Positions 1 through 35,113 of a DNA stretch of 64,000 bases are shown piece after piece. Location: the NCBI RefSeq assembly GCF_988243305.1, contig NZ_OZ547136.1. One strand, written 5' to 3'. A program made the translations under genes and the position numbers. The notes under the pieces were generated by a model. It saw only the letters and a program-made list of their open reading frames with translations, made no database searches and was not told where the DNA came from. Positions within the stretch are counted from its first letter, which is position 1, and each line of letters begins with the position of its first letter.

Positions 1-415
1 AGCGACAATCAATGCTCTGACACCAGTGCTGTGTGGATGGATAAGCTACTTCAGGCTGACGGAAGTCAGAGGAGTGCTGGAGGAGCTGGATGGCTGGATC
101 AAACGGAAACTGCGTTGCTTGTTGTAGCGGCAGTGGAAGAGACCGCTAACCCGGGCAAAGAACCTGCAAAGAGCAGGACTGAGTAAGGACAGGGCAATGA
201 TCTCTGCGTACAACAACCACGGGCCATGGTGGAACTCAGGGTCAAGCCATATGAATCAGGCGATAAAGAATACATGGTTCAGGAGGCAGGGTCTGATATC
301 ACTGCTGGAACAGTAGAGGCAGTTCCAGAGTTAACATGAACCGCCGTATGCGGAACCGCACGTACGGTGGTGTGAGAGGACGGCGGGAGTGATCCCGCCT
401 CCTACTCGATCAATT
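1..415 (+). mobile_element. Group II intron, 3' portion (end of intron-encoded protein ORF plus probable domains V-VI)
   Basis: Frame 2 reads ...CGWISYFRLTEVRGVLEELDGWIKRKLRCLL, then after a TAG RQWKRPLTRAKNL..., typical of a group II intron RT/maturase C-terminus; hairpin ccgtatgcgg/ccgcacgtacgg near 340-375 resembles domain V. Window starts inside the element; 3' boundary approximate. Confidence 0.55.
2..315 (+). pseudogene. Group II intron RT/maturase, C-terminal fragment interrupted by an in-frame TAG at 125-127
   Basis: Same reading frame continues across the TAG with maturase-like sequence (RQWKRP...); no database check. Confidence 0.5.
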
Positions 416-1955: not shown

Positions 1956-3011
1956 ATGTTTACCATTGTTATCGTTGAAGATGAGCCCATCGAATTAGAA
2001 TCCCTGCGGCAGATTATCTCCCAGTGTGTGGAAAACGCTGCGATCCATGAAGCCTCAACCGGTAAAAAAGCGATTCACTTAATTGACCAACTGAGTCAAA
2101 TCGATATGATCTTAGTGGACATTAATATTCCGTTGCCGAACGGTAAACAGGTGATTGAATATCTGAAGAAAAAAAACAGCGATACTAAAATCATCGTAAT
2201 CACGGCCAATGATGACTTTGATATAGTACGCAGCATGTACAACCTTAAAGTGGATGATTATCTGCTCAAACCAGTGAAAAAATGTATCTTGACCGACACC
2301 ATCAAAAAAACCCTAGCATTCGACGAAGGAGAAAATGAAAAATCCCGCGCCCTAAAACAGAAAGTGTTCGCCATGATAGACGATTGCGATTACACCCAGT
2401 GGCACAACTTTATTTTTGACACGCTCAACGGTGCCTGTCCGGTGGATATGATAGAAGAGGATAAGCGCAAAGACGTGATCGATTTTCTGGAAATAGTTAG
2501 CCAGTATATGACCGCCAAAGGGGAAAAGTTAATGCCGACTAACCGTAAAGTCGCCGCGCTGATCAAAGACATCAACCAGTATGGCATGATGGAAAGCCGC
2601 TATTTCCGCATCATGATCAGCCTGCTGACCATTAGCGAAGAGCTGTTTGATTACGCATTAAAAGGCTATACAGGCAATATCGATTTTATCGAACGAGCGA
2701 AATTCCATATTGAGAAAAATATTCTCAGAAACTTGACGCTCGATGACGTGGCAGCAAAATCGTTTGTCAGTGCCTGCTATTTGAGCCGTACCTTTAAGAA
2801 AATTACCGGGTTCGGGTTTTCGAACTATATTGCCACGCGTAAAATTACTATCGCCAAATCGTTATTGCGGTTCAGTGACTTACAAGTAAATACCATTGCG
2901 CTGGAACTGGCATACCAGGATTCAAACTATTTTTGCCGCATCTTCAAAAAAGATACTGGCATGACCCCCTCTGATTATCGAAAAGTCGTGTCCCCGGGAA
3001 TTACACGGTGA
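1956..3011 (+). CDS. Response regulator with receiver domain and AraC-type HTH output (YesN-like)
   Basis: 351 aa; N-terminal receiver (IVEDEP...LVDINIP), C-terminal AraC HTH (YLSRTFKK...DSNYFCRIFKKDTGMTPSDYRK); start 17 nt after the kinase stop with RBS aaaagga. Confidence 0.75.
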   Translation: MFTIVIVEDEPIELESLRQIISQCVENAAIHEASTGKKAIHLIDQLSQIDMILVDINIPLPNGKQVIEYLKKKNSDTKIIVITANDDFDIVRSMYNLKVDDYLLKPVKKCILTDTIKKTLAFDEGENEKSRALKQKVFAMIDDCDYTQWHNFIFDTLNGACPVDMIEEDKRKDVIDFLEIVSQYMTAKGEKLMPTNRKVAALIKDINQYGMMESRYFRIMISLLTISEELFDYALKGYTGNIDFIERAKFHIEKNILRNLTLDDVAAKSFVSACYLSRTFKKITGFGFSNYIATRKITIAKSLLRFSDLQVNTIALELAYQDSNYFCRIFKKDTGMTPSDYRKVVSPGITR

Positions 3012-3139
3012 TGGCGTGATTTTGCATTGGCCCGATAATGAAAGCAAAATAGTCCAACACGCCCGCAAGATAGTTTACGCCCACTTGTCAGGTTCCTATC
3101 CTAAGATAGGAATAAACTTCCCAAACAAGTGGGCTCGCT

Positions 3140-4291
3140 TTGAACGATTACCTGTTTACCTCCGAATCCGTTGCCGAAGGGCATCCCGATAAAATGGCGG
3201 ACCAAATTTCTGATGCCATTTTGGATGCGATACTCCTACAGGACCCGTGGGGTAAGGTTGCCTGTGAATGCTTGGTGAAAACTGGTGCCACTATTGTTGC
3301 CGGAGAAATATCTACCCATGCCGCCGTGGATATTGAGAAGATTGTCCGCAACACCATAAAAGAGATTGGTTACGACCATTCGCGATTGGGGTTTGATGGC
3401 AATACCTGCTGTGTATTAAATATCCTTGGCAAACAGTCCGCCAATATTGCTGACGGCATTCGCGGCCACTCGATGGAAGAACTGGGGGCGGGCGATCAGG
3501 GCATCACCTTCGGTTACGCCTGTGATGAAACGTCGGAACTGATGCCCGCCACGCTGGTATACGCCCATCGTCTGATGGAGCGCCAGGCGCAGTTGCGTAA
3601 ATCCCAACGGTTACCATTTTTACTCCCTGATGCCAAAAGCCAGGTTACCCTGCGCTATCAGGATAATCGTGTTCATTCAGTAGATACCGTTGTGGTGTCT
3701 ACCCAACACAGCCCTGACGTTTCTCTGGACGCGCTACGGGAAGCGGTCATCGAAGAAATTGTTAAACCTGTGATGCCTTCGCACTGGCTCACGCCACAAA
3801 CCCGCTTTCTGGTGAACCCTGCAGGCAGTTTTGTGATTGGCGGGCCGGTGGGTGACTGCGGGCTAACGGGGCGTAAAATTATTGTTGATACCTATGGCGG
3901 CGCGGCTTGCCATGGCGGCGGCGCGTTTTCAGGCAAAGATCCGTCGAAAGTCGATCGTTCCGCCGCCTACGCTGCTCGCTATGTGGCGAAAAACATCGTC
4001 GCCGCTGGGCTTGCCTCACGCTGTGAAGTCCAGTTGGGATGGGCCATCGGCCTGCCCCGCCCTGTTTCCGTCAGGATTAACACCTTCGGTACACAAACAG
4101 TGTCATCTGAAGCGTTGCTGAGAGGCGTTAACAGCCATTTCGATCTTAGCGTGTTCGGCATCATTACTACGCTTGATCTGCTGGTCCCCCGCTATCGTAA
4201 AACAGCCTGCTATGGTCACTTTGGTCGCGACAGCTTTCCGTGGGAAGTTACGGACAAAGCGGCGCTATTATACGAAGACGTTGGACGTTAA
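3140..4291 (+). CDS. S-adenosylmethionine synthetase (methionine adenosyltransferase) paralogue
   Basis: 383 aa; MetK hallmarks [63 protein letters not shown]. Apparent TTG start with no obvious RBS; exact start uncertain. Confidence 0.8.
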
Positions 4292-6324: not shown

Positions 6325-7389
6325 TTATGATTGCTCAGCTTCAGTCTTATCCGATGATTTCTTATTTCTGCGGCTGAAGAACCCGGCAATTAACATATAG
6401 AAGAGAGGAATATAAAAGATTGCCAGTATCGTAGCAGTGATCATCCCTCCAACCACACCAGTACCGATGGCATGTTTACTTCCGGAACTTGCTCCAGTCG
6501 AGACAGCCAGTGGGATAACCCCCATTACAAATGCCAGCGAAGTCATAATTATCGGTCTTAACCTCACTCTCGCCGCTTCAACAGCAGCCTCTTTAATGCT
6601 TAGTCCTTCTTTCTCATGCAATTCACGAGCAAACTCCACGATAAGTATGGCATTTTTCGCAGACAGCCCTATTGTTGTTAATAAACCGACCTGGAAAAAG
6701 ACATCGTTACCAAGGCCGCGCAACAAAGTAGCACAGACAGCCCCCAGGACACCAAGCGGAACAACCAGCATGACCGAGAAAGGAATGCTCCAGCTTTCAT
6801 ACAGTGCAGCCAGACACAGAAAGACGATCAACAGTGAAAGTGCATATAGTGCAGGAGCCTGAGAACCTGAAAGTCGTTCCTCAAAAGACAAACCTGTCCA
6901 GGAAATATGGAAACCTTCGGGAAGTCTTGCCGCAATATCCTCAATTGCTTTCATTGCATCCCCGGAACTGTATCCTGGTGCCGGTTCCCCCAGGATTTCG
7001 ACAGCAGAGATACCATTATATTGCTCCAGTTTTGGTGAGCCATAAATCCATTTGCCTGTTGCAAAAGAGGCAAAGGAAACCATGTCGCCATCACTGTTAC
7101 GGACATACCATTTATCAAAATCCTGCGGTGATATACGTGAGCCGGGTTCGCCCTAAATATAGACTTTTTTCACCCGTCCACGATCGTTAAAATCATTTAC
7201 ATACATCGAACCCCAGGCTGCTGGCATTATGTTGTCGACGTCGCTCATGCTCAGTTTAAGCGCCTGAACTTTCTCGTCATCAATCAGAATCTGGAACTGA
7301 GGCTCATCGTTCATGCCGTTAGGACGAACCATGTTTAACGCTGGACTTTTCGCCGCTTCAGCAAGAAGCTGATTTCGGGCCTGGATCAT
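6325..7389 (-). pseudogene. RND efflux transporter (AcrB/AcrF-like), C-terminal remnant, frameshifted and 5'-truncated by IS2
   Basis: ORFs 6325-7083 and 7153-7389 match the C-terminal third of AcrB-type pumps (VRPNGM...[27 protein letters not shown]...[13 protein letters not shown]) in two frames; upstream part absent, IS2 end at 7482. Confidence 0.7.
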
Positions 7390-8030: not shown

Positions 8031-8141
8031 AAACAGTTGGCAGACCAGAGGAGTCAGCAGAAAGATGAGCGGGAGTGTCGCCAGCATCGGGGACAGGGCT
8101 GATTTCCGCAATACCAGCGCCGGCATTGCAACACGTTTCAT
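8016..8141 (-). CDS. Hypothetical 41-aa hydrophobic peptide, translationally coupled to the AlpA-family gene
   Basis: MKRVAMPALVLRKSALSPMLATLPLIFLLTPLVCQLFVIIS; its ATG overlaps the alpA stop in an ATGA arrangement. Not in the ORF track (below 60 aa). Confidence 0.3.
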   Translation of the reverse strand: MKRVAMPALVLRKSALSPMLATLPLIFLLTPLVCQLFVIIS

Positions 8142-8371
8142 GCTGCTGCTCCTCGTGATTCCTCAATTCGCTGCTGCATCCACTGCTCCACTTCACTTTT
8201 GTACCAGCGGCTGCTGCGCCCCAGTTTGATGGGTTTAGGGAAATGACCTTCACTGATCAGCTTGTAAAACCATTTATCGGTCATACCGGTGAAACTGGTG
8301 ATGTAGTTCATGTCGATCAGGGGATCGTCGGCACGCAGTAACACGCTGTCGTGGCTTGTTGTGGTCAACAT
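8138..8371 (-). CDS. AlpA-family phage/island transcriptional regulator (excisionase-like HTH)
   Basis: 77 aa; ...YITSFTGMTDKWFYKLISEGHFPKPIKLGRSSRWYKSEVEQW matches AlpA-family DNA-binding proteins. Confidence 0.7.
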   Translation of the reverse strand: MLTTTSHDSVLLRADDPLIDMNYITSFTGMTDKWFYKLISEGHFPKPIKLGRSSRWYKSEVEQWMQQRIEESRGAAA

Positions 8372-12270: not shown

Positions 12271-13521
12271 TTATGCCAGCCCAATGAAAAAACCAGCGAT
12301 AGTCGCACTCATCAGGTTTGACAGGGTGGCCGCCGCCAGTGCACGCATGCCCAGTTGTGCAATTTCAGGTGCACGCTGAGGTGATATGGCTGAAAAGGCA
12401 CCCACCACCACACCAATGGAGCCAAAGTTGGCAAAACCACACAGTGCAAAAGAAATAATTGCGGTGGTTTTCACATCAAGCGTACTGCCTGGCTGTAAAT
12501 AGGGTGAAAGATTGAGATAAGCAACAAATTCGTTAATTGCCAGCTTCTGACCAATCAGACTTCCTGCCAGTGAAGCATCCGCCCAGTCAACGCCCATGAT
12601 CCACGCAAGGGGAGCCAAAATCCAGCCGAAAATGCCCTCAAGGGTAATATTACCATAACCAAACCAGCCTCCGATACCACCGATTATACCGTTAATCAGA
12701 GCAATAATAGCAACAAAGGTCATCACTACCGTTGCAACTCCGACAGCGATTTTCAACCCGGTCATCGCCCCGCTGGCCACTGCTTCAATAACACTTTTGG
12801 GAGGAGTATCAGTGAAAGAAAGATTTTCAAAAGTGACTTTTGATTCTTCTGTGGCCGGACTCAGAATACGGGCAAAAAGGATCCCCCCCGGGATCGCCAT
12901 CAACGACGCCGCCAGCAAATAGTCAATCGGAACCCCCATCCCGGCATAGCCGATCATCATTGAACCGGCAATCGAAGCCATCCCACTGCAGATGACAGTA
13001 AATAATTCATTACGATTCAGACGATTAATAAACGGTTTTACAATTGCCGGGATCTCGTTTTGCCCCAGGAAAATTGTCGTTACTGCCACAAATGACTCAA
13101 CTTTACTTATGTTCAGAGCTTTCTGAAAAATCCCCCCCAGAATACGGATAAGCCCCCCCATCACTCTGATGTAGTACAGCAGACTGATAAGCGCTGTAAC
13201 AAAAATGATGGCAGGAAGTACACGGAAGGCGAAGATAAAACCCGCCCCATCGAACAGTACGTCCATTTTGTCCCCTACCAGAGAGCCAAAAATAAAGGCA
13301 CTGCCCGCATCACTGTAAGACATAATTTTATGTACGCCCAGTGCAGCCTGTTCAACCAGCCATTTCCCCGGGGGGAAATAGAGCATGATCCCACCAATCG
13401 CGATTTGAAGAACCAGTGCAGCTCCTGTGGTACGTAAACTGATACGTTTTTTATTCACTGATAGTAGAAATGCAATTATCAGCAATACTGCCATTCCCAC
13501 TATACTTCTCATGATGTCCAT
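12271..13521 (-). CDS. psuT: NupC-family nucleoside transporter (PsuT/YeiM-like)
   Basis: 416 aa polytopic membrane protein with NupC-like sequence; position next to psuG/psuK. Confidence 0.65.
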   Translation of the reverse strand: MDIMRSIVGMAVLLIIAFLLSVNKKRISLRTTGAALVLQIAIGGIMLYFPPGKWLVEQAALGVHKIMSYSDAGSAFIFGSLVGDKMDVLFDGAGFIFAFRVLPAIIFVTALISLLYYIRVMGGLIRILGGIFQKALNISKVESFVAVTTIFLGQNEIPAIVKPFINRLNRNELFTVICSGMASIAGSMMIGYAGMGVPIDYLLAASLMAIPGGILFARILSPATEESKVTFENLSFTDTPPKSVIEAVASGAMTGLKIAVGVATVVMTFVAIIALINGIIGGIGGWFGYGNITLEGIFGWILAPLAWIMGVDWADASLAGSLIGQKLAINEFVAYLNLSPYLQPGSTLDVKTTAIISFALCGFANFGSIGVVVGAFSAISPQRAPEIAQLGMRALAAATLSNLMSATIAGFFIGLA

Positions 13522-27597: not shown

Positions 27598-28923
27598 CTG
27601 ATGAATCCCCTAATGATTTTTATCAAAATCATTAAGTTAAGGTAGATACACATCTTGTCATATGATCAAATGGTTTCGCCAAAAATCAATAATCAGACAA
27701 CAAGATGTGCGAACTCGATATTTTACACGACTCTCTTTACCAATTCTGCCCCGAATTACACTTAAAACGACTCAACAGCTTAACGTTGGCTTGCCACGCA
27801 TTACTTGACTGTAAAACTCTCACTCTTACCGAACTTGGCCGTAACCTGCCAACCAAAGCGAGAACAAAACATAACATCAAACGAATCGACCGATTGTTAG
27901 GTAATCGTCACCTCCACAAAGAGCGACTCGCTGTATACCGTTGGCATGCTAGCTTTATCTGTTCGGGCAATACGATGCCCATTGTACTTGTTGACTGGTC
28001 TGATATTCGTGAGCAAAAACGACTTATGGTATTGCGAGCTTCAGTCGCACTACACGGTCGTTCTGTTACTCTTTATGAGAAAGCGTTCCCGCTTTCAGAG
28101 CAATGTTCAAAGAAAGCTCATGACCAATTTCTAGCCGACCTTGCGAGCATTCTACCGAGTAACACCACACCGCTCATTGTCAGTGATGCTGGCTTTAAAG
28201 TGCCATGGTATAAATCCGTTGAGAAGCTGGGTTGGTACTGGTTAAGTCGAGTAAGAGGAAAAGTACAATATGCAGACCTAGGAGCGGAAAACTGGAAACC
28301 TATCAGCAACTTACATGATATGTCATCTAGTCACTCAAAGACTTTAGGCTATAAGAGGCTGACTAAAAGCAATCCAATCTCATGCCAAATTCTATTGTAT
28401 AAATCTCGCTCTAAAGGCCGAAAAAATCAGCGCTCGACACGGACTCATTGTCACCACCCGTCACCTAAAATCTACTCAGCGTCGGCAAAGGAGCCATGGG
28501 TTCTAGCAACTAACTTACCTGTTGAAATTCGAACACCCAAACAACTTGTTAATATCTATTCGAAGCGAATGCAGATTGAAGAAACCTTCCGAGACTTGAA
28601 AAGTCCTGCCTACGGACTAGGCCTACGCCATAGCCGAACGAGCAGCTCAGAGCGTTTTGATATCATGCTGCTAATCGCCCTGATGCTTCAACTAACATGT
28701 TGGCTTGCGGGCGTTCATGCTCAGAAACAAGGTTGGGACAAGCACTTCCAGGCTAACACAGTCAGAAATCGAAACGTACTCTCAACAGTTCGCTTAGGCA
28801 TGGAAGTTTTGCGGCATTCTGGCTACACAATAACAAGGGAAGACTTACTCGTGGCTGCAACCCTACTAGCTCAAAATTTATTCACACATGGTTACGCTTT
28901 GGGGAAATTATGAGGGGATCTCC

Positions 28924-32632: not shown

Positions 32633-32959
32633 ATGACTAAAAATACTCGTTTTTCCCCCGAAGTCCGTCAACGGGCAGTCCGTATGGTTCTGGAAAGTCA
32701 GAGCGAATATGACTCACAATGGGCGACAATTTGTTCCATTGCTCCAAAGATTGGCTGTACGCCGGAGACTCTGCGTGTCTGGGTTCGCCAGCATGAGCGG
32801 GATACCGGGGGCGGTGATGGAGGGCTCACCACCGCTGAACGTCAGCGTCTGAAAGAGCTGGAACGTGAAAATCGTGAACTGCGCCGCAGTAACGATATCC
32901 TTCGCCAGGCTTCCGCTTATTTTGCGAAGGCGGAGTTCGACCGCCTCTGGAAAAAATGA
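32633..32959 (+). CDS. IS629-like OrfA (IS3-family transposase N-terminal protein)
   Basis: [60 protein letters not shown]... Confidence 0.8.
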
Positions 32960-33846
32960 TGCCACTGCTGGATAAGCTGCGTGAGCAGTACGGGGTCGGA
33001 CCGCTATGCAGCGAACTGCATATTGCCCCGTCAACGTATTACCACTGTCAGCAACAGCGACATCATCCGGATAAACGCAGTGCCCGTGCGCAGCGCGATG
33101 ACTGGCTGAAGAAAGAGATACAGCGCGTATACGATGAAAATCACAAGGTATACGGTGTGCGTAAAGTCTGGCGTCAGTTGTTACGGGAAGGTATCAGAGT
33201 GGCCAGATGCACTGTGGCACGTCTCATGGCGGTTATGGGACTTGCCGGTGTTCTCCGGGGTAAAAAGGTCCGTACGACCATCAGCCGGAAAGCCGTTGCC
33301 GCAGGCGACCGCGTAAACCGTCAGTTCGTGGCAGAACGACCTGACCAGCTGTGGGTGGCTGATTTTACTTACGTCAGCACATGGCGGGGCTTCGTCTATG
33401 TGGCGTTCATCATTGATGTGTTTGCCGGATACATCGTGGGGTGGCGGGTCTCATCGTCCATGGAAACGACATTCGTGCTGGATGCACTGGAGCAGGCGTT
33501 ATGGGCCCGTCGACCGTCCGGCACGGTCCATCACAGTGATAAAGGTTCTCAGTATGTATCGCTGGCCTACACACAGCGGCTTAAGGAAGCCGGATTACTG
33601 GCATCAACAGGAAGTACAGGCGACTCGTATGACAACGCGATGGCGGAGAGCATCAATGGTCTTTACAAAGCGGAGGTAATACACCGTAAGAGCTGGAAAA
33701 ACCGTGCAGAAGTGGAACTGGCCACACTCACGTGGGTGGACTGGTATAACAATCGACGATTGCTGGAAAGGCTGGGCCATACTCCTCCGGCAGAAGCAGA
33801 AAAAGCTTATTATGCTTCCATCGGAAACGATGATCTGGCAGCCTGA
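32956..33846 (+). CDS. IS629-like OrfB (DDE integrase/transposase core; normally expressed as OrfAB by -1 frameshift)
   Basis: 296 aa with DDE-type core (…WVADFTYV…HHSDKGSQY…DNAMAES…). Confidence 0.8.
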
Positions 33847-34945
33847 GTTCACAGATAAAACACTCTCCAGGAAACCCGGGGCGGTTCACTGTGTTAGCCT
33901 GGAAGTGCTTGTCCCAACCTTGTTTCTGAGCATGAACGCCCGCAAGCCAACATGTTAGTTGAAGCATCAGGGCGATTAGCAGCATGATATCAAAACGCTC
34001 TGAGCTGCTCGTTCGGCTATGGCGTAGGCCTAGTCCGTAGGCAGGACTTTTCAAGTCTCGGAAGGTTTCTTCAATCTGCATTCGCTTCGAATAGATATTA
34101 ACAAGTTGTTTGGGTGTTCGAATTTCAACAGGTAAGTTAGTTGCTAGAACCCATGGCTCCTTTGCCGACGCTGAGTAGATTTTAGGTGACGGGTGGTGAC
34201 AATGAGTCCGTGTCGAGCGCTGATTTTTTCGGCCTTTAGAGCGAGATTTATACAATAGAATTTGGCATGAGATTGGATTGCTTTTAGTCAGCCTCTTATA
34301 GCCTAAAGTCTTTGAGTGACTAGATGACATATCATGTAAGTTGCTGATAGGTTTCCAGTTTTCCGCTCCTAGGTCTGCATATTGTACTTTTCCTCTTACT
34401 CGACTTAACCAGTACCAACCCAGCTTCTCAACGGATTTATACCATGGCACTTTAAAGCCAGCATCACTGACAATGAGCGGTGTGGTGTTACTCGGTAGAA
34501 TGCTCGCAAGGTCGGCTAGAAATTGGTCATGAGCTTTCTTTGAACATTGCTCTGAAAGCGGGAACGCTTTCTCATAAAGAGTAACAGAACGACCGTGTAG
34601 TGCGACTGAAGCTCGCAATACCATAAGTCGTTTTTGCTCACGAATATCAGACCAGTCAACAAGTACAATGGGCATCGTATTGCCCGAACAGATAAAGCTA
34701 GCATGCCAACGGTATACAGCGAGTCGCTCTTTGTGGAGGTGACGATTACCTAACAATCGGTCGATTCGTTTGATGTTATGTTTTGTTCTCGCTTTGGTTG
34801 GCAGGTTACGGCCAAGTTCGGTAAGAGTGAGAGTTTTACAGTCAAGTAATGCGTGGCAAGCCAACGTTAAGCTGTTGAGTCGTTTTAAGTGTAATTCGGG
34901 GCAGAATTGGTAAAGAGAGTCGTGTAAAATATCGAGTTCGCACAT
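33728..34945 (-). pseudogene. IS10-right transposase, C-terminus replaced by read-through into IS629
   Basis: Identical to the IS10-left transposase for about 350 residues, then diverges (…ANTVNRPGFPGECF…) at the IS629 junction. Confidence 0.8.
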
Positions 34946-35113
34946 CTTGTTGTCTGATTATTGATTTTTGGCGAAACCATTTGATCATATGACAAGATGT
35001 GTATCTACCTTAACTTAATGATTTTTACCAAAATCATTAGGGGATTCATCAGCCCGCAGCAACTACAGAACGGTAAATAACATTACCCGGGGGAAGCATC
35101 CGGAGGCGAAACA

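Follow-up and report, generated by a model that had tools for sequence, protein, structure and literature searches.

The 128-nt gap between grpQ and grpR probably serves, in the main, to control an internal promoter that drives grpR-grpS and depends on an activator, and it is overlaid by a hairpin that may hide the grpR ribosome site in read-through RNA. This reading is drawn from sequence and spacing conserved among orthologous loci. The initial annotation of this DNA had treated the gap as a structured leader and a candidate cis-regulatory RNA, with SAM-responsive riboswitches and attenuators as its models. The SAM riboswitch or attenuator interpretation does not hold, and there is no sign of ligand sensing.

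The window, meaning the whole 64,000-nt stretch of DNA that was analysed, matches, with 100% identity, the locus for glycyl-radical propanediol utilisation (grp). The grp locus is found in 538 of 5426 complete E. coli genomes. What the window holds is the tail of the E. coli locus, with grpP, grpQ, the gap, grpR and grpS all on the + strand according to RefSeq. GrpQ is the one DNA-binding regulator of the locus, and Pfam assigns Response_reg and HTH_18/HTH_AraC domains to its orthologues. The relevant features, in order of position, are as follows.

677-1939, + strand: grpP, a PocR-type histidine kinase (RefSeq)
1956-3011, + strand: grpQ, a response regulator with an AraC-type HTH (translation, RefSeq annotation)
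3013-3025, - strand: left, inverted and degenerate copy of the motif, with its TTTTGC core at 3020-3025; 5' arm of the first inverted repeat
3044-3057, + strand: putative operator repeat R1, GCAAAATAGTCCAA, PWM score 19.2 bits; 3' arm of the first inverted repeat
3065-3078, + strand: putative operator repeat R2, GCAAGATAGTTTAC, PWM score 23.8 bits; position invariant in 21 loci
3079-3088, + strand: 5' arm of the outer stem, GCCCACTTGT (inverted-repeat search and MFE structures)
3093-3112, + strand: inner hairpin, TTCCTATC-CTAA-GATAGGAA (inverted-repeat search)
3102-3107, + strand: predicted -10 hexamer, TAAGAT, within a CTAnnAT conserved in 21 of 21 loci
3113-3115, + strand: predicted transcription start, placed 6-8 nt after the -10 hexamer
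3125-3134, + strand: 3' arm of the outer stem, ACAAGTGGGC, which pairs with 3079-3088 and covers GUGG at 3129-3132
3140-4291, + strand: grpR, a methionine adenosyltransferase and MetK paralogue with a TTG start (translation, RefSeq CDS)
Downstream of grpR, + strand: grpS, a shell protein (RefSeq)

How widely is this arrangement conserved? A genome scan with GrpR as the query mostly recovered housekeeping MetK, at 62-65% identity, together with two true orthologues. Using GrpQ as the query instead added two Rahnella megaplasmids and 19 metagenomic loci. The grpQ-gap-grpR arrangement occurs in 22 loci, the window included, with gaps of 118-164 nt; the conserved pattern described below comes from the 21 that can be aligned, in which GrpQ identity is 58-88%. 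The leaders were sorted by sequence into four clades, a grouping of our own, plus one outlier (L102). Clade 1 is E. coli-like, clade 2 comprises L091, L092 and L103, clade 3 is Rahnella-like, and clade 4 is the group with GTG starts. Two further leaders were considered for covariation and set aside. The first, from E. coli HH97 (L082, NZ_CP116409.1), was the one inspected among three matches at 90-95% identity and is frameshifted throughout. In this copy, 91.7% identical, grpP, grpQ, grpR and grpS are each annotated as frameshifted with internal stops, and the divergence looks like assembly error rather than true divergence. The second, from Rahnella aquatilis H145, was unusable because most of grpR is lost and the leader is decaying. 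On the H145 plasmid (L084, 5054-5361), grpR has been almost wholly deleted from between grpQ and grpS, its start codon now reads TTC instead of TTG, and the leader hairpin is in decay; the promoter repeats are retained.

The case for a promoter begins with a 14-bp motif, GCAAnAwAGTyyAC. All 21 alignable loci carry two direct copies of it at a spacing of exactly 21 bp. R2 is the best PWM match in the 64-kb window, and R1 and R2 together are the top two. In the 7-9 kb homologous loci, they are likewise the sole strong matches, two chance ones aside. These two, in L002 (8231) and L067 (5702), were rejected since one lies inside a coding region and the other after a terminator. Of the 13 loci whose stored segment reaches that far, 12 have a GCAAAA-type core on the minus strand 19-20 nt before R1, with low PWM scores for the inverted copy (-5.1 to +10). 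The first inverted repeat noted in the initial annotation (ttttgc...gcaaaa; 3019-3028 and 3041-3050, complementary at nine of ten positions) is a putative operator formed by two inverted motif copies rather than an RNA stem. In the clade 4 gaps of L096, L098, L099 and L100, this repeat outgrows the motif cores and reaches stems of 11-14 bp, for example TTTCTTGCGCTTAC / GTAAGCGCAAGAAA in L100. A single difference between L099 and L100 in this stem converts a G.T to a C-G pair.

Downstream of the repeats, CTAnnAT is found at R2+35 (R2+36 in E. coli) in all 21 loci. T1, A2, A5 and T6 of the hexamer are invariant, and positions 3 and 4 vary (TAAGAT, TAAAAT, TAGAAT, TACCAT). This pattern of fixed and free positions is the information profile of a sigma-70 -10 hexamer, and the conserved bases within the large hairpin (3079-3134, below) thus behave like a -10 element. 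The 22 bp between the end of R2 and the -10-like hexamer are the most variable stretch of the gap in sequence; the rigid spacing from R2 to TAnnAT points to a constraint that acts on DNA. The distance from hexamer to start codon varies by 2 nt among the 21 loci, and a rigid R1-R2-hexamer array followed by flexible hexamer-to-start spacing is the pattern expected of a promoter and a ribosome site. A transcription start at about 3114 would leave a 5' UTR of about 26 nt and would place the centre of R2 at about -41.5 and that of R1 at about -62.5. A simple consensus scan of 2800-3300 found no full sigma-70 promoter, and there is no -35 consensus. The missing -35 is expected of an activator-dependent promoter, and it is not positive evidence for one. 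Other regulatory sites were compared by eye and rejected. A possible sigma-54 promoter (TGGC..N..TTGCA, 3012-3026) has a GG-to-GC spacing too short by one base and lacks conservation in the other loci, and no match was found to the CRP, FNR, NarL and IHF consensus sites.

Which protein would act on these sites? The repeats and the hexamer most likely constitute a candidate GrpQ operator and promoter. Similar modules precede other grp genes. E. coli, Rahnella, L112 and L113 each have an inverted site, an R1-like site and a second site at +21 upstream of grpA, and in all four lineages a -10-like hexamer (TAGGTT or CACCAT) stands at R1+57, the same distance as in grpR. Since grpA has no co-oriented gene upstream of it, the repeats there must be promoter elements rather than parts of an mRNA leader. 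The module is also found upstream of grpH in four lineages and in the grpA-grpB gap. In E. coli (L083), the modules lie at 6800-6900 (upstream of grpA), 8090-8160 (grpA-grpB gap) and 12550-12640 (grpG-grpH gap). The geometry is not uniform, as the -10-like hexamer of the grpH and grpB modules is 5-11 bp nearer to the repeats than in grpR and grpA. A PWM scan found no strong motif site upstream of grpP, and so grpPQ seemingly falls outside this control. The published footprint of GrpQ on fimS is unlike the motif, with a best PWM score of -7.3. Genetic data tie the regulator to the locus: when grpP or grpQ is deleted, 1,2-propanediol no longer induces grp genes, and anaerobic grpR mRNA falls in a grpP grpQ double mutant (PMC11724981). 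In the mechanism proposed here, GrpP would phosphorylate GrpQ on 1,2-propanediol under anaerobiosis, and GrpQ would then bind the operator repeats. Centred at -62.5 and -41.5, the repeats would have the classical geometry of an activator that contacts RNA polymerase.

The closest known counterparts are the promoters of AraC/XylS-family activators with class I and class II geometry, namely araBAD (araI1-I2), Pm (XylS) and rhaBAD (RhaS). In both cases, the regulator has an AraC-type HTH, expression depends on the regulator, and there is no -35 consensus. The 14-bp direct repeats are 21 bp apart, in keeping with the 14-17 bp sites of AraC-type promoters, and the proximal one abuts the -35 region. 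There are also differences. GrpQ is a response regulator controlled by phosphorylation (a receiver plus an AraC HTH) and not a ligand-binding protein, grpR has a third, inverted copy upstream, and the spacing to the hexamer differs among the four grp modules.

What would such an operator imply? First, GCAAnAwAGTyyAC in modules of two or three copies is a testable candidate operator for the GrpP/GrpQ two-component system. Second, the locus is predicted to hold at least four regulated promoters, those of grpA, grpB, grpH and grpR. This two-component system governs the glycyl-radical propanediol microcompartment and has been linked to the virulence of uropathogenic E. coli.

The apparent TTG start of grpR named in the initial annotation is well founded, as it is the sole in-frame start after a stop codon at 3113-3115 and is also the RefSeq start. 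Read from this codon, GrpR has an N-terminus collinear with that of E. coli MetK. Of 22 orthologous loci, 21 keep a TTG or GTG start. The impression that there is no clear ribosome-binding site also stands, with a canonical Shine-Dalgarno (SD) sequence absent from the grpR leader. What all 21 alignable loci have is G[TC]GG exactly 11 nt before the start codon (-11), and GUGG at 3129-3132 is the only SD-like element. Its pairing with the 3' end of 16S RNA is weak: 13 of 14 leaders fall between -2.8 and -5 kcal/mol and the remaining one reaches -7.8, compared with -13.5 kcal/mol for a consensus SD. Given its TTG or GTG start codon and the weakness of its ribosome site, grpR appears to be built for low translation. 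Transcripts from the internal promoter would carry a short, unstructured leader of ~26 nt and would be poorly translated by design, through GUGG and TTG. Metagenome gene callers place the start of grpR at an internal ATG in two loci (L110, 8859-9956, and L111, 3094-4191), giving a protein of 365 aa. This call cuts off the conserved N-terminus, including the GHPDK motif, and automatic annotation misses the TTG/GTG start.

The nested inverted repeats reported in the initial annotation are present, every one of them. The outer stem is perfect and, at 10 bp, one pair longer than the 9 bp claimed; its 3' arm does lie close to the start codon, at a distance of 5-6 nt from the TTG instead of 8. Inside it, 3093-3100 and 3105-3112 form a perfect 8-bp stem with a 4-nt loop (CTAA), an inner hairpin that is specific to E. 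coli in its present form. The large hairpin (3079-3134) spans the predicted transcription start, and the 5' arm of its outer stem falls in the predicted promoter spacer, upstream of that start, a region that differs between clades. Folding, one of the checks proposed with the annotation, gave an RNA (3012-3160) more stable than its dinucleotide shuffles: its MFE is -44 kcal/mol, against -29.3 +/- 3.7 for the shuffles (z = -4.0), and none of 200 shuffles folds equally well. For the hairpin region by itself, z is -6.5. Across 19 loci, the mean z of the hairpin region is -2.3, with values below -1.6 in 14 of them.

Does this structure bear on translation? Masking was measured as the energy needed to open -14..+4 around the start codon with the natural 36 nt upstream of the predicted transcription start, as compared with dinucleotide-shuffled upstream sequence. 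In E. coli, opening takes 20.4 kcal/mol with the natural upstream sequence and 8.8 +/- 2.0 kcal/mol with shuffled sequence. Excess masking is found in all five clade 1 loci (z 4.3-6.3) and all three clade 3 loci (z 3.0-3.8). In clade 4, it is significant in L002 (z 2.7) and L096 (z 3.7) and is marginal in L097 (z 2.0) and L099 (z 1.7). No excess was found in clade 2 (L091, L092, L103) or in L067, L098 and L100. In three of four clades, clade 4 in part (four of seven loci), the natural 36 nt upstream thus hide the grpR ribosome site more strongly than their shuffled counterparts do. The mean opening energy is 13.4 kcal/mol for long transcripts and 8.4 kcal/mol for short ones.

The pairing partner of the invariant AGUGG changes from lineage to lineage. 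Clade 1 uses CCACUUGUCUGG, directly after R2; clade 3 uses ACGUUG or GCCGC; and clade 4 uses GGCCGCU, directly before the hexamer. Stem variants that compensate each other include GGGCC/GGCCC, UAACC/GGUUC, GCGCC/GGCGC, and UCUGG/CCAGA versus UCGGG/CCCGA. There are also G.U and A-U alternatives, CCGCU or CCACU with AGUGG, which are valid in + strand RNA only and hence point to that RNA. The initial view of the gap as a structured leader therefore survives in part. Complementarity to the weak ribosome region of grpR is found in several lineages, and no single structure is conserved among them. Pairing with the ribosome-site region looks to have been favoured, with no one structure kept.

Since the 5' arm lies upstream of the predicted transcription start, the hairpin should be confined to RNA that runs in from grpPQ; the grpQ-grpR interval has no predicted terminator. 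In grpPQ read-through RNA, both arms would be present and would pair, hiding the grpR ribosome site. RNA started at the internal promoter would have no 5' arm, would stay open and so would be translated. Such fold-back occlusion, silencing read-through transcripts of grpPQ, is a tentative suggestion drawn from modelled folding, somewhat more apt to be wrong than right, and it is the least certain part of the interpretation. Data from RNA-seq in LB argue against occlusion: the grp cluster was undetected, although GrpPQ are functional, and read-through should accordingly be low. The lineages with no excess masking also count against it, as does a clade 1 stem position that takes all four bases. 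A further step would be to regard the hairpin across the inducible promoter as a gate that shuts out constitutive read-through RNA, kept by the repeated recruitment of new upstream partners for the invariant GUGG. We consider this further step rather unlikely. If true, the gate would be a promoter-embedded fold-back switch, an example from outside transposons.

The precedent for such a switch comes from insertion sequences. In 1985, Davis, Simons and Kleckner reportedly described how fold-back in read-through transcripts inhibits the translation of IS10/IS50 transposase. As in IS10/IS50, the 5' arm at grpR lies upstream of the gene's own predicted promoter start, the 3' arm lies on the ribosome-binding region, and only transcripts from outside would be silenced. 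Unlike IS10/IS50, grp is a metabolic operon and not a transposon, the grpR start codon is outside the stem, and lineages differ in the pairing partner, which some of them lack.

Could the hairpin instead have no function of its own? It may have arisen as a by-product of template switching in an unconstrained promoter spacer, with an incidental overlap of the ribosome site. We consider this a serious alternative, albeit one with the odds against it. The inner stem of E. coli is derived, because its closest relatives carry TTGCC-CC in place of TTCCTATC, and four clustered changes make this E. coli segment the exact reverse complement of GATAGGAA, 4 nt off. Clustered changes that perfect a nearby inverted repeat are the signature of template-switch mutation (PMC8794818, PMC5941160), and the perfection of the inner stem may be partly mutational in origin. 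The likeness to described template-switch hairpins (PMC8794818) is close, as a cluster of substitutions and one insertion have produced a perfect 8-bp stem beside its template. The same idea would account for the absence of a family-wide RNAalifold consensus structure, for stem positions that drift freely, and for several loci with no excess structure (L067, L091, L099 and L100, z about 0 to +1). However, template switching covers the inner stem of E. coli only and does not account for the ribosome-site masking that recurs in other clades. Three clades with differing partners all have significantly raised masking, and the hairpin z values over 19 loci are low; both would be hard to obtain by drift alone.

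The promoter interpretation leaves little room for the ligand-sensing RNA of the initial annotation. The covariance-model scan proposed at that time found no Rfam family in the gap, even at E = 10: cmscan of 2500-3700 at E <= 10 returned three chance-level matches, all outside the gap. At the Rfam gathering score, nothing was found in the Q-R gap in the whole window and 12 orthologous loci. A lack of conserved structure or covariation among homologous leaders had been named in advance as the outcome that would speak against the idea, and at the family level this is essentially what the alignment gave. RNAalifold predicted no pairs for 18 distinct orthologous leaders. The E. coli-type helix can pair in 50.8% of cells versus 46.5% after shuffling, and the clade-4-type helix in 64.2% versus 61.3%. 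Even in clade 1, all four bases (A, C, G and U) are found at one stem position that faces an invariant U. Attenuation fares no better, as no terminator-like stem followed by a U-run was found in 2800-3300, and the sequence after each of the two hairpins is A-rich or mixed. Without an Rfam match, a terminator or a consensus structure, the candidate cis-regulatory RNA is unsupported as a riboswitch, an attenuator or a SAM sensor, and a false lead has been removed.

The resemblance that suggested a SAM riboswitch is easily stated. As with metK SAM riboswitches, there is a structured region before a gene for SAM synthetase, and the ribosome site lies in a helix, as in the SMK box. Unlike the classes compared (SAM-I, SAM-II, SAM-III/SMK, SAM-IV, SAM-V, SAM-VI and SAM/SAH), the grpR gap has no covariance-model match at any threshold and no conserved core, and its conserved bases are explained by the operator, -10 and ribosome-site elements.

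A regulatory RNA of some other kind would require transcription to start upstream of 3079, for example from GATAGT in R2, such that the whole hairpin lies in a genuine 5' UTR and prevents translation until it is opened by a protein, a small RNA, a change in temperature or a ligand (SAM, SAH or methionine). This is improbable. There is a strong hairpin that covers the SD-like GUGG, GATAGT, GATAAT and TATAGT within R2 are also -10-like, and in clades 1-3 a conserved CUAAGAU falls within the apical loop or beside it. Against these points, there is no match to any Rfam family, every SAM class in Rfam included, and no conserved helix or junction that could make a ligand pocket. The GATAGT-like bases are also present in R1 and in repeats at other grp promoters, which makes them part of the repeated motif. 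Moreover, a start 7 nt after GATAGT would remove the 5' arm used in clade 3, and the rigid spacing between R2 and TAnnAT is, again, a constraint on DNA.

A last alternative, that grpPQRS is one transcript in which the first repeat is a 3'-end stabiliser of grpPQ and the second an RNase III site or a 5' stabiliser of grpRS, would fit the terminator-free grpQ-grpR interval, the 11-14 bp first-repeat stems of clade 4 that reach past the motif cores, and the stacking of the E. coli outer and inner stems into roughly 20 bp, but it is very improbable given that stem length and position are not conserved and that the first-repeat cores are found again at true promoters, such as that of grpA, which have no gene upstream.

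The surroundings of the gap contain several other elements. A match to group II intron RNA (RF00029, 50.4 bits) lies at 339-410 (+) of the window, just upstream of grpP, and split maturase and reverse-transcriptase fragments lie between grpO and grpP (L001, 8140-9228). The grpPQRS genes are collinear with grpA-O in E. coli, and converge on the main operon in Rahnella, L108 and L110. The E. coli grp locus seems to have undergone a rearrangement, with an intron remnant at the junction. Further along the window, there are two inverted copies of RNA-OUT, the IS10 antisense RNA, at 27643-27712 (-) and 34938-35007 (+), with 99.5 bits each. They are about 7.3 kb apart, and an ALIL pseudoknot, a frameshift signal of the IS3 family, lies between them at 32914-33030 (+). 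The pair suggests a Tn10-like composite element. Finally, the C0719 sRNA family has a full-length match at 55481-55702 (+) of the window, with 299 bits.
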